Source of the DNA: an uncultured delta proteobacterium | GTDB taxonomy: Bacteria; Desulfobacterota; Binatia; UBA9968 | Assembly (NCBI GenBank): GCA_963760795.1 | Contig: CAVXEP010000022.1 | Location: 247,123-311,122 of the forward strand | DNA: 64,000 bases | Direction of reading: 5' to 3' | Shown here: piece after piece, positions 2,952 through 55,110 of the stretch | Layout of the letters: each line of letters starts with the position of its first letter | How positions within the stretch are numbered: position 1 is the stretch's first letter | The notes under the pieces: generated by a model | The model's input: only the letters and a program-made list of their open reading frames with translations | Database searches by the model: none | What the model was told of the DNA's origin: nothing | Program-made: the position numbers and the translations under genes

Positions 2952-4479
2952 ATGAACATCGGCGAATCCTTAACCCGCAACGCCCAACACTTTCCCGACA
3001 AGCGCGCCATCGTCGACGCGCATAGGTCGGTAACCTATGGCGAATTGCACCAGCGCACCGATCGCTTGGCTAACTATCTGCTCGATCTAGGTGTCGGCAA
3101 AGGCGACCTGGTCGGTCTTTCGGTGGGCAGCCGAGCCGAGCACTTCGAAGCGCTCTTCGCCATTGCCAAGATCGGTGCCTTGGCGATTCCGTTCGATTTC
3201 AATTGGAGCGCGCAAGAGTGTGACGCCATGGTGCGCTTCTTTGCACCCAAGGCGTTCTTCTTCGAAAAACGACCAGAGACCGAGGCCCTGCTGGGGCTGG
3301 CACGCGGTGCCATCCCTGCCGAAAAGCTCATCCTGATTGCCGCTGACGAACTGCCAGGACGGTGCCGGCATGGAAAGCGCTATCGAGCTCGGCAATCCCA
3401 AGGAGCCACAAGCCATTGTCGACGGCAAGGATCCGTTTCTCCTGATGATCACCTCCGGCACCACCGGATTCCCCAAGGCGTGCAGCATCGACCACGAGAC
3501 CTATGCGCTGCGCTGCCTCAACTACAGCGTCAGCAAAGGCATGAACCACAACGAGCGCGCCCTGATGGCGCTGCCGGTCCACTTCAACGCCGGCCGCGGC
3601 TCGGTGATGGCGATCCTGTATCTCGGCGGGACGATCATCATTCAAGAAAAATTCGACGCCGAGAGATTCTTGCAAGCCATAGAGCGGGAGCAAATCACCT
3701 ACACCATGCTGGTGCCGGTATTATGCGAACGCTTGCTGCGCTCCGAGCACTTGAACAAATATCGCACAACGTCACTCCGCTTCCTCGGCATCACCGGCGG
3801 CCATCTTTCCCAAGAACTCGCGCGTGAAGCACGCCAGCGCCTGAGCCCGGGTATCTTTGAAGCTTACGCCTCCACCGACTGCGGTCAGATCACCACCGTC
3901 GACGCCGAGGACTGGGAAACCCACGGTGACACCGTGGGCAAACCGATCTGGTGTGTGCTGGTACGCTTCGCCGACGACGACGGCAACGAAACGGCGCGCG
4001 GCGAGCCTGGAGAGATTTGCCTGCGCACGCCGCTTGCCATCCAAGGTTACTACCGAAACCCGACAGCGACAGACGAATTCTTGACCGGCGGCTGGTGCCA
4101 CACCGGCGATATCGGATTTTTGGACCAAGAAGGCTACCTGCACATCTCCGGCCGTAAGAAGAACATGGTAAAGAGCGGCGGCATCAGCGTCTTTCCCGAA
4201 GAAATTGAAGACGCGCTGCGCCGGCATCCCGCGGTTGCGGAGGCGGCGGTGGTTGGGTTCGATAGTCAGCAGTGGGGCGAAGCGGTGAAAGCGTTCGTAG
4301 TTTTGAACCCCGGCGCCGATTGCAACGCAGACAAATTGATTCAATTCTGCAAAGAGTCGCTGGCGCCGTATAAAGCGCCCAAAGCCGTGAAGTTTCTCGC
4401 CGCGCTGCCGCGCACCGGGCTCGGCAAGATCGATCGAGGCAAACTAGCGGCGCTGACAAACCAACTGGACGAGAATTGA
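2952..4479 (+). CDS. AMP-dependent acyl-CoA synthetase (class I adenylate-forming enzyme), frameshifted near 3340-3370
   Basis: TSGTTGFPK, YASTD, GWCHTGDIG, GRKKNMVKSGG..VFPEEIE and LPRTGLGKID motifs across ORFs 2952 and 3337. Confidence 0.9.
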
Positions 4480-13863: not shown

Positions 13864-15346
13864 TTAAGCGTCTTTTCTCTTGCTCTTAAATATCGGCCAA
13901 ATCAAAAACGCTACCGTCAGTCCAATCAGCACGGCGCATATCGGCCGTGTCAGAAAAATGCCAAAACTGCCGCGCGAGATTAACAGCGTCTGGCGCAAAG
14001 ATGTCTCCATGATCGGCCCGAGCACCATGGCGAGAATGAATGGCGCGCCTTCGTAGCCGACGCGGCGCAGGACGAAGCCGGCGACGCCGAAGGCGAGCAT
14101 GATGACGATCTCGGCGACGTTGGCATTGAGGCTGTAAACGCCGATCAAGCAGAAAAGTAATATTAACGGGAAGAGAATCGCGTAAGGCGTTTTTAGCAAC
14201 CGCACCCAGATGCCGATCAGCGGTAGGTTGAGAATCAGCAGCATGGCGTTGCCGACGTACATGCTGGCGATGAAGCCCCAGAACAGTTCGGGATATCTGG
14301 CGATGAACAGCGGGCCTGGCTGGATGCCGTGGATCATCAGCGCGCCCATGAACAGCGCCATGATCGCGCTGGTGGGGATGCCGAGCGAAAGCAGAGGAAT
14401 GAACGAGCCGCGGTGGCGGCGTTGTTCGCCGCTTCCGGGCCGGCCACGCCTTCGATGACGCCGGTGCCGAATTTTTCCGGATAGCGCGACAAGCGTTTTT
14501 CCATGGCGTAGGAAACGAACGACGCGATCACCGGTCCGGGCCCGGGAAGAATGCCGAGAAAAAATCCGAGCGCCGAACCGCGCGCGATCGGCGCCGCGCT
14601 GTCGCGCCAATCTTGGCGATTGGGCAGCAACCCTTGGATCTTGGTTTCATAGACCGACTGCTGGCCCAGGACGACCAGATTTTCCAAGACTTCGGCGATG
14701 CCGAACAATCCCATCGCCACCGGTACCAGGCCGAAGCCATCGCGCAGCGTCAACGTGCCGTAGGTAAACCGCTCCTCGCCGGAGATCGGGTCCATGCCGA
14801 CGGTGCCGGCGAGCAGGCCAAGCACCGCCATGATCAACGCTTTGACCATCGAGCCCTGCGACAGATAGGCGACCAACGTCAACCCAGTGAGCGTGAGGGC
14901 GAAATATTCCGGCGGGCCGAAGCTGAGCGCCGCTCTACCTAGTAACGGCGCGAGCAACATCAGGCCGACCACCGCCGACGGTGCCGGCGATGAACGAGGC
15001 GAAGGCGGAAATGCCTAACGCCGCGCCGGCGCGTCCCTGGCGCGCCATCTTGTAGCCATCGAGACAGGTGACGACCGACGCGGTTTCGCCGGGAATATTG
15101 ATTAGGATAGAAGTCGTCGAACCGCCGTACATGGCGCCGTAATAAATTCCCGCGAGCATGATGATCGCGCTGGCCGGCTCCATCTTGAAGGTAATCGACA
15201 GTAAAAACGCCACCGCGCCCACCGGACCCAAGCCCGGCAACACACCAACCAAAGTACCGACCAAAGCGCCGAGAAAGCAGAACAGCAGGTTCATCGGCGT
15301 CAATGCCACCGACAAGACCTAGGGCAAAGTTTTGCAGCAGCTCCAC
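13864..15346 (-). CDS. tctA: Tripartite tricarboxylate transporter large permease TctA, frameshifted (~15315, ~14970, ~14410)
   Basis: [46 protein letters not shown] and GIQPGP motifs. Confidence 0.9.
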
Positions 15347-17167: not shown

Positions 17168-17662
17168 ATGGGAACCATCGCCGGAGCGCAGAATATTTTA
17201 GCCGGCCTCAAGGGCGCGGGTATCGATCTGGTGGCGAGCGTGCCGGACATCAACATGCTCCAGCTGCTCAATCTGCTTTATCAAGACAAAGAGATCGCCC
17301 ATGTGCCGGTGGGGCGCGAAGAAGAAGGCATCGGAGTCTGCGCCGGCGCCCATCTCGCCGGCAAATTCCCCGCCATGCTGATGCAGAACGGCGGCCTGCT
17401 CAACAGCGCCAACGGACTGACCACGACCGCGCTGCAATTCGGCATTCCGGTTGTCCTGTTGATTTACTACGCCGGCGATATCGGTGACAACGCCTTCCAC
17501 ATGGTCGGTTTGGTCACCGAGCCCGTGCTCCAGGGCCTCGGCATCAAATATATCGTCATGCGCGACCCGGCCAAAGTGAAGCAGGAGATTGCCGGGGCGG
17601 TCACCTTGGCGAATTCTTCCAAACGACCGGTGGCGCTACTGTTAACCCGCGCCGTGCTGTAA
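17168..17662 (+). CDS. ThDP-dependent sulfopyruvate/phosphonopyruvate decarboxylase alpha subunit (ComD-like)
   Basis: SVPD, REEEGIGVCAGAHLAGK and LMQNGGLLN motifs. Confidence 0.8.
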   Translation: MGTIAGAQNILAGLKGAGIDLVASVPDINMLQLLNLLYQDKEIAHVPVGREEEGIGVCAGAHLAGKFPAMLMQNGGLLNSANGLTTTALQFGIPVVLLIYYAGDIGDNAFHMVGLVTEPVLQGLGIKYIVMRDPAKVKQEIAGAVTLANSSKRPVALLLTRAVL

Positions 17663-17674
17663 GCGAGAGTGACT

Positions 17675-18288
17675 ATGAAACGATTCGAATGCCTGCAAGC
17701 GATCGCACCGTTGATTAAAGACGAACTGTTCGTCACCACCGCCGGCGGCGCCACTAACGAATGGAACGCCGTGCGTCCGAGCGATGGCAACATTCAAGTT
17801 AAAACCTTGGGACTGTGTTCCTCCATCGGCTTGGCCTCGCCATCGGCTTGCCGAAACGCAAAGTCTTCGTCTTCGACGGCGACGGGGCGTTGTGGATGAA
17901 CTTGGGCTCGCTGGCGACCATCGGCCTGCACCAGCCGAAAAATCTAATTCACATCTGCTGGGACAACAAACAGTACGAGTCATCGGGCGGCGAACCGACG
18001 GCGGCCAGCGCCGGCAACATCGACTTCGCCGGCATTGCGCGCAACGCCGGCATCAAAAGCTCGCGGGCGGTAAATACGCTTGAAGAGCTAAAAGACGCGG
18101 TGAGCCACGCTCTCAAAAACGCCGGCCCGCATTTCATCGCCGCCAACATCGAAGCCGGGCGCGCCGAGTCGCCGCCGCTCAAGTACGACGAGCTGGAAAA
18201 TAAATATCGCTTCATCCGCTACGTCGAAGACACCGAAGGCGTGACTATCCTGCGTCTGCCGCAGTCGGCGAGTTATTTGCTGAAATAA
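17675..18288 (+). CDS. ThDP-dependent decarboxylase beta subunit (ComE-like), frameshift near 17835
   Basis: LG.CSSIG, DGDGALWMNLG and DN..YESSGG ThDP-binding motif. Confidence 0.8.
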
Positions 18289-46219: not shown

Positions 46220-46487
46220 CTTAGTGTCCCCTTATTCTCTCGTCCATTTAGTTAGCTTTAACATCGCCGCGCCGAGCATCAGGCCTTTGCCGCGCCAATG
46301 GATCCATAAATAATTTCTGTTCGTTTTAGGTGGCGTCGTCGACCGAGTGGACAAAGTGTTTCTGGCTTCAAATGGGGTGCAAATAGTCGGATGGGCTTGT
46401 CCAGCGAGTCAACAACTTGCCGCAAATCCGTTCCAATTAATTTTTGGCGGCGATTGCCGAAATTTTCACATCTAAGTTATGGTCTAA

Positions 46488-47141
46488 CTACGGCGCGGCA
46501 GGCGGCCGATTGGCCGCCACCGCGCGCTGGTAAGCCACACGCGAAGTAGTGCGCGACAGGTACGCTTTCAGCGGTTCAGGCAACACAATCTCGCGCCGTT
46601 GGGCGCCCGTGAGGCAGGTAGTCAAAAGGATATCCGCGCCGGTGAAACAATCGCCCATTGCATACGGCCCCGCCCCTAGCCGCGCCATGGCCGTTTCGGC
46701 CTGCTTGGTAAAGATTTCCTTGGCCGCTTTCACCGCGTTGGGCGCCTCGCCGTAGATGGCATGCAGGTCGCCATGGCGGCGGATGATGTACATGGTGTCG
46801 GCGTCGAGTTCCATCATGCAGAAAAAGCACCACATGTCATAACGCGCGCGCTCAGCCGGATCGGCGGGCGGCTGCATGTTCTTCTCCGTGCCGTAACAGG
46901 TGGTGAGGTAGTTGACGATCGCGGCACTCTCCGAAACCACCAAATGGCCGTCCTGGACTGTCGGGATCTTCTGGCTGGGATTGAGCAGGGTGTACTCGGG
47001 CGTCACATTGCCACCGTTGCGCGATCCGATCGGGCGGCACTCGTAGTCGAGGCCCAGCTCATGCATGCTCCAGTGCGCGCGCAACGTGCGCGGCGTACCT
47101 GCACCCCAGACAACTTTCTTTGCATTGCGATCCGCTGCCAA
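46488..47141 (-). CDS. Glutathione S-transferase family protein
   Basis: LNPSQKIP, ESAAI.NYL and FTGADILL; TTG start with AGGGAG RBS. Confidence 0.92.
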   Translation of the reverse strand: MAADRNAKKVVWGAGTPRTLRAHWSMHELGLDYECRPIGSRNGGNVTPEYTLLNPSQKIPTVQDGHLVVSESAAIVNYLTTCYGTEKNMQPPADPAERARYDMWCFFCMMELDADTMYIIRRHGDLHAIYGEAPNAVKAAKEIFTKQAETAMARLGAGPYAMGDCFTGADILLTTCLTGAQRREIVLPEPLKAYLSRTTSRVAYQRAVAANRPPAAP

Positions 47142-47165
47142 ACTGCTCTCCCTGATTGAATGCTG

Positions 47166-47365
47166 TATAGGAAATTTAAACCAACTTTTTTCCGACCCGA
47201 GCAGTATCGCCGGATATGTGAGTTGTCAATCGCCTTTTCGTTTGATGAAAATACGGTGTTGCTTCGGCTGGCTTGGGCGGCGAAGCGGGCGGAGGGGCGC
47301 TACGTGTTCCAGATCGCACCGCTCGCTCGAACTCAAGCCGACCGGCATCGCCGGCTTGCGTTGAC
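47166..47365 (-). promoter_or_regulatory. Repeat element R1 (promoter/leader module) upstream of GST
   Basis: Minus strand TTGACA-N17-TACTGC; aligns with R2-R5. Confidence 0.75.
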
Positions 47366-47652
47366 AAACGGTTATCGGATCTTCAGGTCGTGTGAAATCT
47401 ATTGAATCGCGGCGCCGACGCACCCTGCGCGTGCGCGTGAGCGCTTGAGATCTCGGTTAGCGGCACAGTCACTCAAGTTTTATGCGCTGATCGGCGGCCC
47501 AGAGCACCGCCGCAGGTAAGGTGAAGCTGTGGCGTTTAGCGCACAGGCCCAGTGTGGTTGGTTTGCCCGTGCTCGGCACGCTTTGCACACTCAGGGGGAA
47601 TGGTTTGCGGAACGTCGGATTTGGCGCTGTCAATAGAGCTCCAAGGCGTTTT

Positions 47653-48198
47653 CTATGCCTTAAGGCGGGCAGGTGCGTCATCCGGCGGCGTGATATCAAA
47701 CGCGTTGGCGGTGCAACAGGTCATCGAGAACGAGCCGACCCGGGCAACCAGAGCTACCAGCTCTTCAGTGCTAAAGCATGCTTCGGCGGCGGCGTAGGTG
47801 GCATCGGATAGCCCCTTGTCGGCGAGCAGTTCGTTGGCGATCTGATGCGCGAGCAATTCGCGCTTGTCACCGGTCGGCAGCGCGCCGCGGGCGTTGATGG
47901 CGTCGATCTCTGCCTGCGTAAGTCCAACTTTAAGCCCGTTGCGGCACTGCGCCGCCCACGGGTATTTGGCGCCCCAGAACCGCGCCACGGTCAATGTAAC
48001 GATCTGCTGTTCGCGGGCGGACAGCGTGCTGTCGGCGATGCAGTCTGCCATGTTGTGGAGGCTCTGCATCAGTTTGGGATTGCGGATATAGGCCCAGAAT
48101 GGCCCGCCATACGGCTTGCCGTTGGCCTTGGACGCCGCGATCACGGCGCGCTGTTCATGGTTCATCTCGTCGAGCGTCAGAACGGCAATGCGTGTCAT
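47653..48198 (-). CDS. Carboxymuconolactone decarboxylase/AhpD-like family protein
   Basis: GPF..Y.RNP.L, LSAREQQIV.L.VAR.W.A.Y.W, and LSDATY.AA...F..E.LV.LV pattern. Confidence 0.8.
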   Translation of the reverse strand: MTRIAVLTLDEMNHEQRAVIAASKANGKPYGGPFWAYIRNPKLMQSLHNMADCIADSTLSAREQQIVTLTVARFWGAKYPWAAQCRNGLKVGLTQAEIDAINARGALPTGDKRELLAHQIANELLADKGLSDATYAAAEACFSTEELVALVARVGSFSMTCCTANAFDITPPDDAPARLKA

Positions 48199-48357
48199 TA
48201 TCTATCTCCCTGTTTCTATACTGCCTGCAGCCCGATTTACGGCAGATCGATCATGACCTCGATTGCTGCCGTGGTAATCACGGTGCGATGATCTATCGCC
48301 CGATCACGCACGTCACCGATTTCCGGCTGGTCCAACTATATGCGAGCAACCCATACG

Positions 48358-48515
48358 TATAAGAAATTTAAACAACCTTTTTTTCTGTCGCGAGCTATAT
48401 CGCCGCACCGGCGAGTCGTCAAGCGCACGAGTGTTTATTGAAATTCGCGGTTTTGCTCCGACTAGTTCAGGCGCGATCACTCAAACGCGAGACCGAGCAG
48501 CATCGTCGACCTATG
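48358..48515 (-). promoter_or_regulatory. Repeat element R2 upstream of the CMD-like gene
   Basis: Minus strand TTGACG-N17-TATAGC; 32-nt identity with R4 (cgcaccggcgagtcgtcaagcgcacgagtgtt). Confidence 0.8.
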
Positions 48516-48594
48516 CCTGCCCCCTTGTCCTCGCTGACTTTGTCAACTCAATCAACCAGTCCCCCGAATGCGTTCCTTGATAAAAGATTCACGC

Positions 48595-49848
48595 TCACGG
48601 GCGCCTCCAGGTATCCCAGCTCCGGAGGATCTGTCCGGCGATCTTGTCTGGATCGGCGCCGGGGATCGGTTCGAACTTCTGCAGCCGACCTGCGAAGCAA
48701 TCTGCCAGGTACAGATTACCGAGTTGATCCGTGGTGATCCCGTGTGAACAGTTCAGCCGACCAGGCTGCCCCCCCGGCGCGCCCCAGCCGTACAGGAAAT
48801 TCCCGTTCAGATCGAACTTGAGGATCCTACTCGTGGGCGCATCGCCGACCCAGATGAAACCTTTGTCATCAATGAAGTGATTCACCATGAGCGTGTTCTG
48901 ACCGGCGGGCCAGTGCGGCGACTTCAACGGCCATAGATCGAGGAACTTGCCGTTCTCGTCGAAGACCTGCATCCGCGCATGTCCGCGGTCGATAATGAAG
49001 AGCCGGCGGTCGGCGCTGATCGCGATGCTGTGGACCGTATTCCACTCGTTCGGTCCCGGGTTCTTCGGATCCTTGGGCGGCCCGCCCCAGTCCATGATGA
49101 AGTTGTCGTTGGCGTCGTACTTGACGACGCGTGTGCCGCCATAGCCGTCCGTGATAAAGTAGGTTCCGTCAGGCAGCCAGGCGATGTCCGTCGGCCGATC
49201 GAAGGTGTTCGGCCCGCGACCGCGGACACCGAGCTGGCCTTTGCTGTGAACCAGTTTGCCGTCGTGGGTAAAGCGATAAATCATGTGGAGCTGGTCGTCA
49301 ATGATCCAGACATGCTTGTCTTTGTCATAAGGGCTGATCTTGATCTGGTGCGGCCCACGACCGCAGGGATTCTTGGCGAACAGCTCTTCGAGGTGCGGCC
49401 ACTCGTCGATGAGGTTGCCCTGGCGATCGAACACGATGATCGAGTGTTGGAACCGACGCTCCCATCCCCGCGGTTTCTCCGGCTGGCAGGTTGCCGTCAA
49501 CCCGTCCGAGTTGCCCGTGGAGTTCCCGCGGGACGGATTGAGCGCCGCATAGGGTGTCCACGGAGCGCTGCCCTTCGGCAGCGGCAGCTCGCCGCGCATG
49601 GCGACCCAGATTCGGTCGGGGTTTTCTGCGTAGACGCCGCCAAAGGATCCCCAGGTCCATCCGTCATGTGAGTGACGAGTGTCGGGCAACGGCTTGGGCC
49701 ACCCTTCGACCACCTTGTAGTGACCCGTGGGCCAGTCCTGGTGACTCCACCGGCCTGACGGCTTAGCGCCGGTGCCACACGACACTGCACCGATCGACAA
49801 CAGCGTCCAGGCAACGATCAACCGCGGCAAAGAATGATTGCCCAACAT
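48595..49848 (-). CDS. NHL-repeat lipoprotein, peptidyl-alpha-hydroxyglycine alpha-amidating lyase-like
   Basis: Lipobox AVSC; FDRPTDIA..PDG..FITDGYG..RVVKYD, HSIA and HGI NHL blades. Confidence 0.85.
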   Translation of the reverse strand: MLGNHSLPRLIVAWTLLSIGAVSCGTGAKPSGRWSHQDWPTGHYKVVEGWPKPLPDTRHSHDGWTWGSFGGVYAENPDRIWVAMRGELPLPKGSAPWTPYAALNPSRGNSTGNSDGLTATCQPEKPRGWERRFQHSIIVFDRQGNLIDEWPHLEELFAKNPCGRGPHQIKISPYDKDKHVWIIDDQLHMIYRFTHDGKLVHSKGQLGVRGRGPNTFDRPTDIAWLPDGTYFITDGYGGTRVVKYDANDNFIMDWGGPPKDPKNPGPNEWNTVHSIAISADRRLFIIDRGHARMQVFDENGKFLDLWPLKSPHWPAGQNTLMVNHFIDDKGFIWVGDAPTSRILKFDLNGNFLYGWGAPGGQPGRLNCSHGITTDQLGNLYLADCFAGRLQKFEPIPGADPDKIAGQILRSWDTWRRP

Positions 49849-49907
49849 GCGGCCTCCACAGGAATTACTAACTGCTTTCCATCAACAATCAGGAATCCTC
49901 AATCCTT

Positions 49908-50095
49908 GGAGAAAATCTAATCCACGCTTATTTCTGACCGGAGCAATACCGCAGGCCTCGGAAAGTTGTCAATCAAATTTGCTGAAGATCCCGGTGGCTT
50001 AAGCAGCGCAGCCGTCGGTTGCGCTCAATTTGTTCCCAGTCGGCGCCCTCGCTCAAGCGCGAGACCAAGCAGCATCGTCGGCTTGCGCAGGCAAC
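49908..50095 (-). promoter_or_regulatory. Repeat element R3 upstream of the NHL gene
   Basis: Minus strand TTGACA-N18-TATTGC; shares ttctgac..gagc and cgcgagacc.agcagcatcg blocks with R2 and R4. Confidence 0.7.
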
Positions 50096-50167
50096 AGGTT
50101 CGGCCTCTTGACAGAGGCAAGACACAAAAAATGAAATGGCGCGGGCAACGTTCAAGCTGCCGGCGTT

Positions 50168-51319
50168 TCAAATACTGACTTTGCCTGGGTGCCAGTCGTA
50201 ACTGTTGACGCTATAGGCATCCGCCGGCATCAGCGTGGTCAGTCCGCGCTTGGCGAGTTCGCCTTCGAACTTCTCGCGGATCCAGGGATCTTCATCGATG
50301 TATTCGATCATGTCTTTGGCGCGGTCCTCGACCTTTTCCGCGTGGCCGCGAAACTGCCGCGGCGGATGCAGCGCCAGATAGCGCGCCGGAGTGCCGCCGG
50401 CGTTGAAGTGCTGGTGAAACCATTTGTCGGGCGGCACGAACATGCTGCCCTCGTGCCAGGGCGCGACAATCTTTTCTTTGCCTTCCTCCCAGAGCACGGA
50501 ATAGCCTTCGCCCGCCGGAATCACGATCACCCGTCCCGGGCCGTGGCGATGGGCCTTCTTGTAGGTGCGCGTGGCAAACACCGACATATGGCAAGACATT
50601 TCCGAGCTGGGAAACATGATGATCACGCTCATGCCGCCGCGCGCGTTGGTCGTGAGCTTGTCCCACGCCGCCATGTCGGGGAAAAAGTTGCCGTGCCAGT
50701 AGACGCGACTGCTGCCCCAGGCAAGCTCCGGATCGCCGTTTTCGACGAGCTTGGCTTGGGAGTAGGTTTCGCTTTCTTGGGCGAGAGCTGCGGCCTTCTG
50801 ATAGGGGTTGTTAAAGTAGAATTGCGGTTCGGTGACCAGCGAGGTGGCCAGGGGCAGATAGCTATAGCGCAAGAGTCGAACCGGCTTGTCGCCGCGCATG
50901 TTGGCCAACTGCAAATTGCTGTTGGAAGCGACGTGAAACAAGCTGCGATCTTGCCATTCAAAAGTTTTCTTCGGCGCGCCGTCGGCGCTCCAAACCGTGC
51001 TCACGCCGTAGCCTTGCAACACGTAAATCAGCTCGTCAAGAGCGAATTTCATCGGCGGCAACGATTTCCCCGGCGCAATCTCCATGACGATCGCGGAGGT
51101 GATGCCTTCTTGACCGGTCAGCTGGATGAACGCCGCGTCGCACTGGCGCTCGTCCCACCAGCCCAGCTCCACGGTGCGCAAATCTTCGATAAAGAAACCG
51201 CGGTGAATCGGAATCCCCACCGACTCCATCCAGCGGTCGTAGGTAAAGGCTTTAACTTCGTTCCGCTTTTGGTCAGCTTGATACGGGTTGGCAGTAAGCT
51301 CTGAATTCAAAGTGGACAT
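50168..51319 (-). CDS. Bicupin protein (gentisate dioxygenase-like fold)
   Basis: Two cupin modules; second has KAHRHGPG...WFHQHFN metal motif. Confidence 0.8.
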   Translation of the reverse strand: MSTLNSELTANPYQADQKRNEVKAFTYDRWMESVGIPIHRGFFIEDLRTVELGWWDERQCDAAFIQLTGQEGITSAIVMEIAPGKSLPPMKFALDELIYVLQGYGVSTVWSADGAPKKTFEWQDRSLFHVASNSNLQLANMRGDKPVRLLRYSYLPLATSLVTEPQFYFNNPYQKAAALAQESETYSQAKLVENGDPELAWGSSRVYWHGNFFPDMAAWDKLTTNARGGMSVIIMFPSSEMSCHMSVFATRTYKKAHRHGPGRVIVIPAGEGYSVLWEEGKEKIVAPWHEGSMFVPPDKWFHQHFNAGGTPARYLALHPPRQFRGHAEKVEDRAKDMIEYIDEDPWIREKFEGELAKRGLTTLMPADAYSVNSYDWHPGKVSI

Positions 51320-51399
51320 AGCGCAGCTCCTTCGTAGTCTGTTTCAATACCCCGAATGGTTTTTCTATCGCACAATTCGTCGTCAGAGCAAGTCTGTGC

Positions 51400-51600
51400 G
51401 GAAAACTTGAACAACCTATTTTCTGACGGGAGACGTAGCGACGCACCGGCGAGTCGTCAAGCGCACGAGTGTTGGGTGAAAATTGCGGTTTTGCTTCGAT
51501 TGGTTCAGGCGATGCAGCGGTCGGATACGCTTGATTTGTTTCCTGTCGGATCGTTCTCTCCACCGCGAGATCGAGCAGCATCGACGAGTTTCGTTGAAGT
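51400..51600 (-). promoter_or_regulatory. Repeat element R4 upstream of the cupin gene
   Basis: Minus strand TTGACG-N17-TACGTC; aligns with R1-R3. Confidence 0.8.
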
Positions 51601-51686
51601 GTGGTCGATTCACAATCAAATGAGCAAGATTCAAGACTTGACCCTAAATGCTTTGTTCTCATTAACGAAACTCGAAAACTTTATCT

Positions 51687-52901
51687 TTACCGCGGTGGCA
51701 ATGGATCGGGACCGAAGAGCTTTTTGAAAAGCTCGATGACTTCCCGTTCCCGCGGCAGCTCCTTGATGATTTTTTCGAGCGCCTCCCCGGTTAAAGAACT
51801 GGAATCGTCGCCCGTCTTCTTGTACTCGGCGATAAATTCCGGATCGGCAAACGTCTTGCGCATCGCCTCGCGCAGAACCTGCACGCGCTCCCTAGGCACG
51901 CCGGGCGGCAGCACGTAAGGACTTCCGCCAGCCTGGAACGCCCGGTGCAGGGAGACGAGTTTGCGCTCTCTCTCCGCGCGGGCAAAGGTTTCTAGATCGG
52001 GCACATGACTGTAAATGGAATGGGGCTTGGTTCCCTTGGGTATCTCGGTAAGGGCATGGACGTCGAGAAGATTTTCGTCGAACATCTTCTGCCGCATGGG
52101 CGTTTCCCAGTGATTGGTTCGGGCATCGATTTCACCGGCGCGGAGAGCCACGTCGAGTTCCCCTCCCGTATAACCGACTACGAACTTGGGCTCATTCATA
52201 CCCATGAGGTACGCAAACATCCGGCCGGTGTAGTAGATCGTGTGGCCCACTGCCTGAGCGCCGATGCGGACGCCCTTCGCGGCCCTGAGATTTTCTAAAT
52301 TTCGTATACCGGCGGCCCTGCGTGTCAGGAAAATATGCGCATGGCCGCTGTAAGGGGTGCCCAGATAAATAAACTTATCGATATCGTAGAGCACGCCGCT
52401 TTCGCCGAGAATGGCCGCCGGAATGAGATTGCTGCCCATCACCCCGATCGTCAGTCCGTCGGGCTGAGCCCTGGTGTAAACCTGATTCGCCGCCGCCCGC
52501 GCGCCCGCTCCTTGGCGGTAATCGACGACCATGTCCGGGCTGCCTGGAATGTGCTTCTTGAGAAAGGTCGTGACCGCGCGACCGCGCATGTCTCCCGTGC
52601 CGCCGGGCGCAAAACCAAAAACCATCGTGATCGTCTTGCCTTGGTAGAATGGGGTCTGGGCTACAACCGCCGAGGTCGCCAGCGAAAGCCAGGAGACGGC
52701 CAACATGGACAAGAATAACCACGCTCCCATAGGCCGACGAAGTCTTCGTCGTTCATCCTTCGACAAGCTGCTCAGAGCGAACGATGGGATGCGTGAAACT
52801 GAGGATTTGCCGTTTGTGCTGAGCCCACCGAGGTCCCTCGGCAGATCCTCTTCGCAACATGAATCTCTTCGTACCCGCCTGCTAGGGTTTGTGCCGTTCA
52901 T
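51687..52901 (-). CDS. Bug/TctC-like substrate-binding protein (true start may be ~52730)
   Basis: FYQGKTI...GFAPGG.GD, PDGLTI and PPGVP.ERV..LR.A...TF.DPEF motifs. Confidence 0.88.
   Translation of the reverse strand: MNGTNPSRRVRRDSCCEEDLPRDLGGLSTNGKSSVSRIPSFALSSLSKDERRRLRRPMGAWLFLSMLAVSWLSLATSAVVAQTPFYQGKTITMVFGFAPGGTGDMRGRAVTTFLKKHIPGSPDMVVDYRQGAGARAAANQVYTRAQPDGLTIGVMGSNLIPAAILGESGVLYDIDKFIYLGTPYSGHAHIFLTRRAAGIRNLENLRAAKGVRIGAQAVGHTIYYTGRMFAYLMGMNEPKFVVGYTGGELDVALRAGEIDARTNHWETPMRQKMFDENLLDVHALTEIPKGTKPHSIYSHVPDLETFARAERERKLVSLHRAFQAGGSPYVLPPGVPRERVQVLREAMRKTFADPEFIAEYKKTGDDSSSLTGEALEKIIKELPREREVIELFKKLFGPDPLPPR
52750..52832. repeat. REP-like palindromic element (CTTCGACAAGCTCAG family) inside the 5' region of the gene
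   Basis: tccttcgacaagctgctcagagcgaacg ... ccgtttgtgctgagcc; translates SFDKLLRAN...PFVLS. Confidence 0.6.
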
Positions 52902-52924
52902 GTTATCTCCAGGGATCGTTTCGG

Positions 52925-53035
52925 TTTGTCTGTGAAGGCAGACCTATCGCCGAACCGCCGACCTGTCAATCGCCCGAGCGTTTGGCGAAAGCCGCGATTT
53001 GCATCGGCTGATTCGCGTCGCGCAGCAGGCGGAGA
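52925..53035 (-). promoter_or_regulatory. Repeat element R5 (partial) upstream of the TctC-like gene
   Basis: Minus strand TTGACA-N17-TAGGTC; tatcgccg...tgtcaatcgcc...cgtttg.(c/t)gaaa...ttgc.tcggctg shared with R1. Confidence 0.7.
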
Positions 53036-53107
53036 TCGAAGAGCCGGACAGGGGGGTCAGACTTTGCTAACTGGACTTTCTTCGTTCACGTGGTCGCACA
53101 AGCTCTA

Positions 53108-53201
53108 GATTCGAATCATTTTGATCTACCGCAAGGGCATCAAAGACGACCTGACGCCCAAGGAAAAGACTGTGTTGCGCAAGATTAATGCGGGGTGGTA
53201 A
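53108..53201 (+). pseudogene. C-terminal remnant of a RelE/HigB-type toxin
   Basis: IRIILIYRKGIKDDLTPKEKTVLRKINAGW* immediately before the antitoxin; N-terminal part absent. Confidence 0.7.
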
Positions 53202-53203
53202 CG

Positions 53204-53495
53204 ATGGACAAGAAGCTGTTTAAACGATTAGTAGAGAGCATGAGTCAGATGGATGAAATCGTGCGCGGCGTTCGCGCGCCATCGCGAGAGTTCTATGTCG
53301 ATGCCGCAATGGTCAAGGAGATTCGAGCCATGACGGGCCTCAGTCAGCCGCAGTTCGCGAAGCTCCTGCACGTCGACGTTGGTACTTTGCGCAATTGGGA
53401 ACAGGGCAGACGAGAGCCGACGGGCCCGGCAAAGGCTCTGCTGACGAGCGATCAAGACTGACCCGAAGGCAGTGCTGAAGGCGTTAGCGGCATGA
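53204..53495 (+). CDS. HigA/NadS-type XRE helix-turn-helix antitoxin, frameshift near 53445
   Basis: IRAMTGLSQPQFAKLL.V.VGTLRNWEQGRREP.GPAKALL..IKTDPKAVLKALAA*. Confidence 0.88.
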
Positions 53496-54099
53496 AAGGA
53501 GGCGGCGGCTTGACCCACCTCCTTGGCAGGGCGACATGGAAGTTAGACCAAGTCTGCGCAGATCTTAACTCTGGAGCAACCGGCTCGGATACCGATGCGA
53601 CTCGGAATTCGCATGCGAAATGTTGGGCGAACCTAATCCTTGCCAGTTTTGCTTCCCTTTGCGCTATTGGGTTATTTGTCTCACGGCGGCTTGCTCTAAC
53701 GTTACACCCAGCTTGCGACCTTCTTGGATCGGTTCGTATGTTGGTTGGAAGGGATTTACCACTCACGAGAACGCGCCGACTCTTTCGAGGGCTCAGCGAA
53801 TACTCGCTCTGAGTCGTCACTGTAATATCGTATTAAGAAATTTTCCTCCGGAAATTACGTCGTTCTTCGAAAGCCCACCGAATCTCAATACAGCAATTTA
53901 GAATATATGTCCCACGCAGCCCTAAATCGCACCGCCGCAATTTGACCAATTCGCGGCAATGTTTTTTCTTCGAGATTCTTGTTAGTTTCGAGCCTGATGA
54001 TACTTTTTCGAACGTTCTTGAAGCATGAGTCCGACCTCTGTTGTCGTGCGCCCGAATTCGCTGTTGTGTTTCTTTATAGCCTCGTTCGTTTCTTTTCAA

Positions 54100-55110
54100 G
54101 AAATCTCGGGACCTGGAAACTTTTTCGATGTCGATCCAGGCCGATCATCATCGCCGCTTTAGCCCTTGTGTTAACTTGCTTGGGCGCTTTGGTGCCCTGA
54201 TACGTGCCCGAACTGTCGTCCAACGTTGCCATGCCGAGATACAGCGCAAGGCTCCTCTCGGAAAGAATCCTCGTGCGGCCGTCAATTTTCCCCATCCGAC
54301 TGTACACTGCGGATCTGTATCGACGAAGGTCTTGGGATCTTGGAGTCTTTGGCAATCTCTGCAATCTTGTTGCGTAGCCGCTTAATCTTCTCATCGAGTT
54401 CCAGACATCGCCGGGCGTCCTCTTGGATCATCTCGCCTACCCACTCTACTTCGTCACTGAAGTGGGCTCGCTTCTGCCAGTCCTCGATCTTCGCAGCACA
54501 CTTCACCCCCACCTGCGGTATCTTCATCAACGTGATGTGCCGGAGTCGGGAAAACTCGCTGAGGGTCTGCGCACTTAACAGGAAGTTTAAAAACCACTGA
54601 TTGCTCGCTTCCCCCGTGATCTCTAACAATCCCGGACACACCGCTTGGAGATCGGCCTGTAAACCGTTCACCACCCGCACCCGCTCGTTGACTAACCGGC
54701 GCCATGCGGCTCAGTCGCTTGAGTATTTCATTCTCCTGGGGCGTACCCTTTACTTCCTGCAGTACTCGTAAGCCAGCGGGTAGACGATCGCTTAGCTGAA
54801 CAGTGTAAGCCTTCGCGCACGTCGATCCGGCCAACTCTTGGGCTCCTCCGGGAGAATTTGACCTTGGGCATATGAGGTTGTTCGATTGTAGAGCCGGTAG
54901 CCGTGCTGGCGAACCATGCTGTCCAACGGCCGGGCATAGCCGTTGTAACCTTCCATGGCCACTGCCACCACGCAGCTCTTGGTCTTCTGATGCTTCTCGA
55001 TGCGGGCTCCGCAAATCCTTCGGGCCGGTGCTCGATCTCAAATTCTTCGAGCACTTCGCCGCTTGATAGTTCCCATCGCCACGCTGTCACGATTACTCCT
55101 AGTATCGATG
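54100..55110 (-). pseudogene. Decayed IS110-family transposase (DEDD recombinase)
   Basis: Fragments GEVLEEFEIEH.PEGF, RVVNGLQADLQAVCPGLL and SERSLALYLGMA.LDDSSG (catalytic-Ser SG motif region); many frameshifts; C-terminus missing. Confidence 0.8.

Follow-up and report, generated by a model that had tools for sequence, protein, structure and literature searches.

What joins five unrelated genes that stand one behind another on the same strand, when each of them is preceded by the same stretch of non-coding DNA? The locus that raises this question lies in a window of 64,000 nucleotides (the whole stretch of DNA analysed here) from contig CAVXEP010000022.1 of an uncultured delta proteobacterium of the Binatia lineage. 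A first-pass annotation, made from the letters of the window, had pointed to five copies of a diverged element (R1 to R5), each ahead of a different gene, and had suggested, among other possibilities, an undescribed gene-capture system. ISCR elements are members of the IS91 family, which encodes a Y2 HUH transposase and moves by rolling-circle transposition. We consider it likely that the repeats are decayed 3' end regions (oriIS) of an ISCR/IS91-family rolling-circle element and that they are at the same time outward promoters. The element is of a known kind: an unnamed member of the ISCR family that survives only as oriIS-end fossils heading single-gene modules.

One element ahead of five unrelated genes

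On the minus strand of the window, one copy of the element stands ahead of each of five unrelated, co-oriented genes, and a repeat finder, a MAFFT alignment and an nhmmer model agree on this. The genes encode, from R1 to R5, a GST-like protein, a CMD/AhpD-like protein, an NHL-repeat protein, a bicupin and a periplasmic binding-protein-like product. The nhmmer matches extend over 47160-47376 (R1), 48352-48525 (R2), 49901-50104 (R3), 51391-51609 (R4) and 52915-53048 (R5). In leave-one-out runs, in which the other four copies supplied the model, the held-out copies R1 to R5 were recovered at E = 4e-33, 7e-32, 7e-27, 4e-40 and 3e-11, respectively (E <=2.9e-11 in every case), and the next best match in the 64-kb window reached only E ~0.02-0.4. 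A model built from 100 copies of other genomes returned exactly R1 to R5 from the window (E 1.5e-50 to 1e-14). No sixth copy was found in the 64-kb window with the leave-one-out models or with the 100-copy external model, and searches that included the latter found no decayed copy ahead of the CoA-transferase gene (46220-46487).

The number of copies, their position on the coding strand of the five genes and the absence of the element from the rest of the window are as the first-pass annotation had described them, and so is the run of 32 identical nucleotides in R2 and R4 (48404-48435 and 51442-51473). The positions that it gave were right as well, but three of the copies are longer than it had drawn them, R1 reaching to 47627, R3 to about 50113 and R4 to about 51628. 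Of the sequence blocks that it listed as shared, the 5' block and that of the 3' terminus are missing from R5.

A repeat family in Binatia genomes

Genome contigs were scanned with a degenerate pattern made from the positions that are invariant in R1 to R5. The scan returned 107 loci (designated L and a number below); in 91 of these the five-copy nhmmer model gave a significant match that reached well beyond the pattern, and the remaining 16, from scattered taxa, look like chance matches. The retrieved set comprises about 100 distinct copies in about 40 metagenome-assembled genomes (MAGs), mostly labelled Candidatus Binatia or 'uncultured delta proteobacterium'; Binatia SMAG_U3962 alone accounts for at least 14 copies, and MFD04850.bin.2.19 for at least 12. 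The element is thus not confined to this locus. Some copy-bearing contigs have been binned elsewhere (Bradyrhizobium, Udaeobacter, Fimbriimonadales); most of these are short, and one of them, L060, carries genes whose products closely resemble those of the window. We take such contigs to be mis-binned Binatia DNA and the window itself to derive from a member of the Binatia. Weaker but significant matches came from Nitrospirota, namely L003 on a 201-kb contig (47.7 bits) and L006 on an 86-kb contig of Nitrospira sp. RSF5 (27.7 bits). Given these two matches, the element family may reach beyond Binatia.

The repeats as remnants of ISCR-type oriIS ends

In an alignment of 30 near-full-length copies with their flanks, similarity stops abruptly after ...GGTTTAAATTTCCTATAC(A/G)T; a second subfamily has the terminus ...AAAAATCCTATCCAT, and the copies end in the pattern ...CCTAT(A/C)C(A/G)T. 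In the 5' direction, many copies pass into an open reading frame (ORF), of which they contain the 3' end, ...CPNCGGALKIIAAIEDPPVIVKILSHLGLPTRAPPRAPARRVDLFQTI. Where the copies begin varies continuously, between -719 (inside the transposase gene) and +152 counted from its stop codon. The longest upstream ORF (L023:1143-1847) matches Pfam Y2_Tnp at 7e-18. Its NCBIfam matches, to ISCR_clade_Ia (8e-56) and IS91 (1e-10), fall under the curated cut-offs because this ORF is a fragment. Its best plasmid matches are ISVsa3 transposases (47.5% identity over 230 amino acids); ISVsa3 is presumably the same element as ISCR2. Full-length relatives of 480-490 amino acids, carrying Zn_Tnp_IS91 and Y2_Tnp domains and up to 85% identical, are present in public protein data, which give them without genomic context. 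More than 20 loci have a transposase remnant ahead of the repeat; in the window, R1 is the only copy with one (45 amino acids).

The terminus itself could be compared with that of ISCR2. The two intact ISCR2 copies of plasmid NZ_MT219816.1 show no difference over the 235 nt that follow the stop codon; beyond this they diverge, and their common sequence ends ...GAAAAGGGCGTTTATTCTTCCTATACGT. The consensus of the Binatia family ends ...GAAAAAGTGGTTTAAATTTCCTATAC and agrees with the end of ISCR2 in 20 of its last 26 nt, a score that none of 500 shuffles reached; this stretch of 26 nt is the only alignable part, and the family model gave no nhmmer match to the ISCR2 oriIS region. The distance from stop codon to terminus is about 215-220 nt in the Binatia family and 235 nt in ISCR2. 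Because of the terminal match and this similar distance, we assign the repeat to the ISCR-type oriIS ends. The ISCR-type element from which it derives is widespread in Binatia. In the literature, the oriIS region measures 232 bp in ISCR1 (excerpts of PMC6218425) and is given as '~240 bp' for ISCR2 (PMC2725981). As regards a subterminal palindrome, the consensus has CGCCGG-T-CCGGCG about 45-50 nt from the end, R2 and R4 have CGCCG-GTG-CG(G/T)CG, and R1, R3 and R5 lack it.

The idea of gene capture in the first-pass annotation was thus right in spirit, but that of an undescribed system is unsupported: the repeat is an ISCR/IS91 oriIS end, and elements of this type have already been described as gene-capturing, with outward promoters at the oriIS end (excerpts of PMC6218425). 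Another of its suggestions, a mini mobile element that carries a promoter, agrees with the mobile-element origin and the conserved promoter-like core, but the repeat is not self-contained and its 5' ends are ragged. Finally, it had seen no integrase. None of the Phage_integrase type was found among the 61 window ORFs scanned, but the relevant enzyme is the Y2 HUH transposase, of whose gene a remnant lies inside R1.

The five copies of the window, all on the minus strand, have retained different parts of this end. R1 (47160-47627, delimited by nhmmer with the longer references L075, L039 and L023) is a 5'-truncated and internally deleted ISCR-like remnant that occupies the entire spacer between the CMD and GST genes. 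It consists of a transposase-gene fragment at about 47460-47594, followed by the oriIS-end region at 47160-47376. With the transposase remnant L023up and the full-length transposase relative P0001 as queries, tblastn matched 47594-47460 at 62-64% identity over 45 amino acids. The sharp 3' end of the element is seen in R1 as the terminal oriIS-type motif GGTTTAAATTTCCTATACAG (47163-47182), as read from the sequence, the family alignment and the ISCR2 comparison, and 22 nt separate the R1 terminus from the GST start codon. In R2 (48352-48525), likewise an oriIS-end remnant, about 40 nt are missing internally, and the terminal motif at 48355-48377 is nearly intact. R3 (49901-50113) and R4 (51391-51628) are again oriIS-end remnants; R3 starts close to where the transposase stop codon would lie and has lost 12 and 6 nt internally, and R4 starts about 18 nt beyond that point. 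The shortest remnant, R5 (52915-53048), holds only the middle part with the promoter-like core, and has neither the 5' block nor the oriIS terminal motif. Of the five copies, R1 and R2 have an intact terminal motif and R3 and R4 a degenerate one, and R5 has none.

Two further features of the repeats deserve mention. An ATG is kept in R2 to R4 (ATGCTGCT...), and a leader peptide or small ORF was therefore considered and rejected: the frames are broken by indels of 1, 6, 12 and 40 nt, and the conserved stretch is explained as a part of the 3' flank of the transposon. In seven loci (L056, L053, L037, L063, L082, L032 and L034) the transposase remnant is cut at one point, about 110 nt before the stop codon and ahead of ATCGAAGATCC... 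This cut point adjoins a short hairpin-like sequence, CCTGTCCTGAGC...CGTCGAAGGG, which has one orientation in four of the loci and the opposite one in three. The junction may point to a further family of small repeats or to a hot spot of insertion within ISCR.

Repeat and gene behave as a module

If each repeat is the end of a mobile element, has it stayed with its gene? CMD orthologues with 80-89% amino acid identity were found in seven loci, and the junction between repeat and CMD gene is orthologous in L038, L002, L066, L084, L092 and L097. The gene ahead of this unit varies: it is the NHL gene in the window, a luciferase-like monooxygenase gene in L066 (in the order R-monooxygenase-R-CMD) and the bicupin gene in L084 (bicupin-R-CMD), where the NHL module is absent. 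On the other side, the CMD unit of L002 is followed after 180 nt by the CoA-transferase gene, R1, the GST gene and about 215 further nt of the window being absent, and in L015 the CoA-transferase gene is directly headed by a repeat of its own. NHL orthologues with 90-91% amino acid identity occur in L020 and L047, where the unit of repeat and NHL gene has the same limits as in the window (49975 to 48581/48582) and different flanks. The right ends of the modules lie 0-39 nt past the stop codons. At L060, whose genes are 88-93% identical in protein to window genes, the bicupin gene (93% amino acid identity) and the CMD gene are 20 nt apart with no repeat between them, and upstream of the bicupin gene the homology with the window ends at 51392, exactly at the R4 terminus. 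The place of R4 is taken there by a 5'-truncated copy (1982-2062 of L060, JBGQCE010000307.1) in the opposite orientation, which faces a 183-aa ORF with no Pfam match.

Modules thus differ between related genomes in their presence and in their neighbours, which is the cassette-like behaviour that the first-pass annotation had proposed to look for by comparing relatives, and its repeat-plus-gene modular architecture stands. R1 to R5 are 54-81% identical to one another, and four of the five have their nearest relative in another genome; the array is therefore not a recent local amplification. We conclude that each repeat is an old companion of its downstream gene, and that modules have since been gained, lost or placed beside new neighbours. 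The 5' extent of the repeat varies between genomes at the orthologous CMD site, which fits slow erosion after the association of repeat and gene had formed. A hybrid of R3 and R2, which would have proved a deletion by recombination between repeats, was sought in L084 and not found; the L084 repeat is merely 5'-truncated.

Could the modules still be moving? An intact ISCR transposase encoded elsewhere might act in trans on solo oriIS ends, which would make the array a working cassette-stacking site. The full-length transposase relatives in public data, the differences in module content and the exact end of the L060 bicupin-leader homology at the R4 terminus are all in line with this, and IS91 itself needs only the last 82 bp of its ori end, with termination failing in 1-10% of events (excerpts of PMC13181058). 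However, one-ended rolling-circle transposition moves the DNA on the transposase side, yet here it is the downstream gene that stays linked to the repeat across genomes. The terminal motif is moreover degenerate or missing in three of the five window copies, the copies are old and have diverged along with their cargo, and the window holds no intact transposase gene. We therefore regard present mobility as possible but unlikely.

A predicted outward promoter

What might the retained ends do for the genes that they head? Every one of the five window copies carries TTGAC(A/G)-N17/18-TA, at 68-224 nt ahead of the annotated start codons (pattern match), and TTGAC and its spacing to TA are retained in all five. 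The core of R1 reads TTGACA-N17-TACTGC on the minus strand (47200-47229, pattern match), and the promoter-like cores of the other copies lie, on the same strand, at 48393-48422 (R2), 49942-49972 (R3), 51431-51460 (R4) and 52940-52969 (R5). Seven core-bearing copies were found independently of the retrieval pattern, and six of these have TTGAC and one CTGAC. At the orthologous CMD site the parts flanking the core decay in some lineages, and in L038, L066 and L092 the erosion halts about 15 nt upstream of TTGAC, a comparison biased by the way in which the loci were retrieved. A terminator scan gave no excess of terminators. Readings of the upstream block as an extracytoplasmic function (ECF) sigma or sigma-54 promoter were judged by eye and discarded, R3 lacking 12 nt of the stretch and a GG-N10-GC being absent.

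The relation of the repeats to genes was assessed with the 69 copies that have at least 600 nt of downstream flank, by comparing the longest co-oriented ORF starting within 450 nt with the longest opposite-strand ORF of the same stretch. A Pfam match at E<=1e-5 was obtained for 44 of 65 co-oriented candidates, against 4 of 55 on the opposite strand. More than 25 Pfam families, unrelated to one another, are represented downstream, among them alpha/beta hydrolases, amidohydrolases, CMD, NHL, nitroreductase, Rieske, luciferase-like monooxygenases, binding proteins and CoA-transferase, and the first in-frame start codon follows the terminus after 1-373 nt (median 92). Upstream genes occur in either orientation, co-oriented with the copy or divergent from it (the latter in L020, L043, L060 and L019), which speaks against a 3' element of the attC type. 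Neighbouring copies no more than 5 kb apart form 18 co-oriented pairs and 1 opposed pair, partly non-independent owing to near-duplicate contigs, with spacings of 620-3969 nt. Transposase remnants were also noticed downstream of the cargo at L045 (3644-3964), L036 (3799-4044), L059 (3327-3625) and L061 (2056-2442). Such remnants would represent the start of the next repeat unit, so the arrays are probably longer than the 2-kb flanks show.

In ISCR1, the 232-bp oriIS region contains two functional outward promoters (PCR1-1 and PCR1-2) with imperfect -10 boxes, and the genes downstream are mostly co-oriented with them (excerpts of PMC6218425). By analogy with these POUT promoters, the present role of the Binatia repeats is likely that of an outward promoter. 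The sigma70-like promoter that the first-pass annotation had placed in each copy can be found as a pattern in all five, but its -10 box lacks the usual final T and a generic scan is silent.

The repeats might instead be neutral debris, that is, ISCR remnants with no present function that await deletion, their orientation reflecting ISCR capture or insertion next to genes. The continuous spread of 5' truncation points (-719 to +152 from the transposase stop codon) is what would be expected of such debris, as are the degenerate terminal motif of R3 and R4 and its absence from R5, the weakness of the -10-like box and the complete loss, in L060, of the repeat ahead of the CMD gene. Against this stand the orientation bias of 44 versus 4, which parallels that of ISCR1, whose promoters work (excerpts of PMC6218425), and the halt of the CMD-site erosion shortly before TTGAC in three lineages, with the retrieval bias noted above. 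On balance, debris without function appears rather improbable.

A possible history of the array

The following course of events would account for the array. ISCR copies and their adjoining genes would have come to lie side by side, by way of rolling-circle capture, of recombination between ISCR copies, or of the two together. Deletion would then have removed the transposase genes and the 5' parts as far as the stop codon of the upstream gene, leaving the final ~85-220 nt of each ISCR copy. The retained piece would contain an outward sigma-70-like promoter (TTGAC(A/G), 17-18 nt, TA-N3-C) about 60 nt from the terminus, from which the downstream gene may be transcribed as it is from the POUT promoters of ISCR1. 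As direct repeats, the pieces could also supply substrates for homologous recombination, and possibly trans-mobilisable origins, which would explain the module differences between related genomes. The order of events and the recombination mechanism are in this form our proposal; a model of rolling-circle capture and recombination has been put forward for ISCR1 regions and IS91-type transposons (excerpts of PMC5737581, PMC13181058 and PMC12772301).

Several observations weigh against the reading of the repeats as ISCR-type ends with promoter activity. No intact transposase gene was found in any retrieved locus, the maximum being amino acids 252-480 of a 480-aa relative (queries ISCR2 and P0001, flanks of up to 2 kb), and in the same flanks no terIS was seen and no 5' end could be defined. 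Lacking both, the autonomous parent element is undefined; this concerns the retrieved copies and not necessarily the whole family. The subterminal palindromes are short (5-6 bp), and their arms show no compensatory change in the 30-copy alignment. DNA folding of seven ori ends, that of ISCR2 included, did not rise above shuffles (z -0.56 to +1.30), and inspection by eye of the 30-sequence alignment showed no conserved tetranucleotide past the terminus that could be a target. As for the promoter, the final T that is usual in a -10 box is missing from the sequence TA-N3-C, and for this reason a generic sigma-70 promoter scan did not call the TTGAC...TA sites of the repeats. The retrieval pattern was derived from the core, so the conservation of the core among retrieved copies is partly circular, and the orientation bias could stem from the capture mechanism and not from selection for expression. 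Array lengths and copy numbers are lower bounds, with flanks of 2 kb for 80 loci and 300 nt for 27, and counts are partly non-independent because of near-duplicate contigs (QHOF/VBKE, DASQUN/CAWJBB).

Two readings of another kind fare much worse. The repeat could be a cis-regulatory RNA leader, a riboswitch or a small RNA common to a regulon, and its conserved A-rich and U-rich stretch would indeed fall in a 5' untranslated region if transcription started after the -10-like box. We consider this very improbable, since Rfam gave no match at gathering thresholds in the whole window, RNAalifold on four copies and both strands gave weak, inconsistent helices with a covariation term of 0 or unfavourable, the downstream genes come from more than 25 unrelated Pfam families, and the homology to a transposon end accounts for the conservation. 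An integron-like array, in the sense of an attC cluster without an integrase, would agree with unrelated, co-oriented, mostly single-gene units split by one repeat family and with cargo right ends 0-39 nt from stop codons, but its probability is close to nil: the long imperfect palindrome of an attC is absent on both strands (by RNAalifold and folding, no dedicated attC model being used), as the first-pass annotation had also seen, the repeat is homologous to the 3' flank of a Y2 transposase gene, repeats also follow divergent genes, which is unexpected of an attC lying 3' of its gene, and no integrase is encoded by the 61 window ORFs scanned.

Comparison with known systems

One of the closest parallels is ISCR1. 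As in that element, about 220-235 nt of non-coding DNA lie between transposase stop codon and terminus, followed by variable and mostly co-oriented genes, and the oriIS region harbours outward sigma-70-like promoter(s) with an imperfect -10, in the Binatia copies predicted from the sequence. ISCR1 differs in having kept its transposase gene, in lying behind class 1 integrons of clinical Gammaproteobacteria and in standing mostly ahead of resistance genes, whereas the Binatia repeats are 5'-eroded ends only, situated in the chromosome of an uncultured host and ahead of ordinary metabolic genes. ISCR2 (ISVsa3) provides the closest named transposase (47.5% over 230 amino acids), with ISCR clade Ia as best family and the 20 of 26 match at the terminus, while upstream of the last 26 nt the two oriIS regions share no detectable similarity. 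ISCR2 arrays on plasmids resemble the window in that a single plasmid carries several co-oriented copies separated by cargo genes, one of the copies being cut by a neighbouring gene. They differ from it in that they contain whole transposase genes, and two intact copies are identical past the stop codon, unlike the window copies with their 54-81% identity.

A truncated ISCR with its oriIS upstream of cargo, and a second oriIS downstream, has been called the ISCR28 'sandwich' (excerpts of PMC12772301, citing Yuan et al. 2024). In contrast to this single sandwich around a resistance gene, as described in those excerpts, the window has five successive remnants, and the family has about 100 across genomes. 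More generally, IS91, IS801 and IS1294 have two unlike ends, of which the ori end follows the transposase gene, and no terminal inverted repeats; one-ended transposition in the IS91 family is able to carry neighbouring DNA (excerpts of PMC13181058). The Binatia element would follow this general plan, with unlike ends and an ori end 3' of the transposase gene. It departs from canonical IS91 in its weak match to the IS91 equivalog (1e-10, against 8e-56 for ISCR clade Ia) and in showing, by eye, no target of the CTTG/GTTC type beside the terminus. With integron arrays and attC clusters the locus shares compact, co-oriented, mostly single-gene modules, a single repeat family and a content that varies among relatives. 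Unlike integrons, it has no attC hairpin, is linked to an HUH Y2 transposase instead of a tyrosine recombinase, and ties each repeat to the downstream gene, to which it brings a predicted promoter.

ISCR elements have been studied almost solely as carriers of antibiotic-resistance genes in clinical Proteobacteria, and here about 100 promoter-like ISCR end fragments stand ahead of ordinary metabolic genes in Binatia, an uncultured lineage of soil and sediment. A full-text literature search, with subscription journals outside its coverage, returned no paper naming both Binatia and IS91 and, among the matches listed, no account of truncated oriIS ends serving as promoters in a setting other than resistance. 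Should the promoters prove active, the repeats would constitute a large natural case of transposon ends co-opted to serve as promoters and, by recombination between them, to reshuffle accessory genes, and would suggest that ISCR-type capture is something that environmental bacteria do generally and not a peculiarity of the resistance era. It is tempting, though decidedly speculative, to go further and see in the oriIS ends of Binatia a chromosomal counterpart of integron cassettes, in which genes would be captured precisely at the terminus, receive their own promoters, be stacked head to tail and remain exchangeable, through recombination between repeats or a transposase acting in trans, while the transposase genes are purged. 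Were this so, the five-module array would be one working site of a lineage-wide shuffling of genes for accessory metabolism. In practical terms, the family model is a simple annotation aid that flags ISCR ends and the genes that they head.

Cargo genes and chromosomal surroundings

The window is ordinary chromosome, with purine-biosynthesis genes, dut, an M16 peptidase gene, pnp, nrdJ, dciA and mla genes. Past R5 lie an HTH_3 antitoxin-like gene (53195-53461, plus strand) and a fragment matching Transposase_20 of the IS110 family (E 1.7e-4; 54074-54394, minus strand), and the array therefore adjoins other mobile-element debris. At 2952-4479, 13864-14972 and 17168-18288 of the window, genes for an AMP-binding enzyme, a TctA protein and a thiamine pyrophosphate (TPP) enzyme (N- and C-terminal domains) are split into overlapping or adjacent ORFs, which suggests frameshifts from assembly errors, or pseudogenes; if assembly errors are the cause, 1-nt indels in the repeats have to be read with caution.

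The five cargo genes are all on the minus strand, and four of the identities given in the first-pass annotation are backed by Pfam. The gene downstream of R1 (46488-47141) is GST-like (GST_N, 8e-13), that downstream of R2 (47653-48198) CMD/AhpD-like (CMD, 6e-8), that downstream of R3 (48595-49848) encodes an NHL-repeat protein (NHL, 2e-13), and that downstream of R4 (50168-51319) a bicupin (Cupin_2, 5e-6, just under the curated cut-off). For the fifth gene, downstream of R5 (51687-52901), the assignment as periplasmic binding-protein-like depends on a weak TctC match (2.5e-4, below the curated cut-off); judging from its translation, its real start codon may lie further downstream than 52901. 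The leader of the CMD gene, 150 nt between the R2 terminus and the start codon (48199-48351), is conserved across seven genomes and contains an inverted repeat, CCACGGCAG...CTGCCGT, which might form a gene-specific regulatory hairpin.

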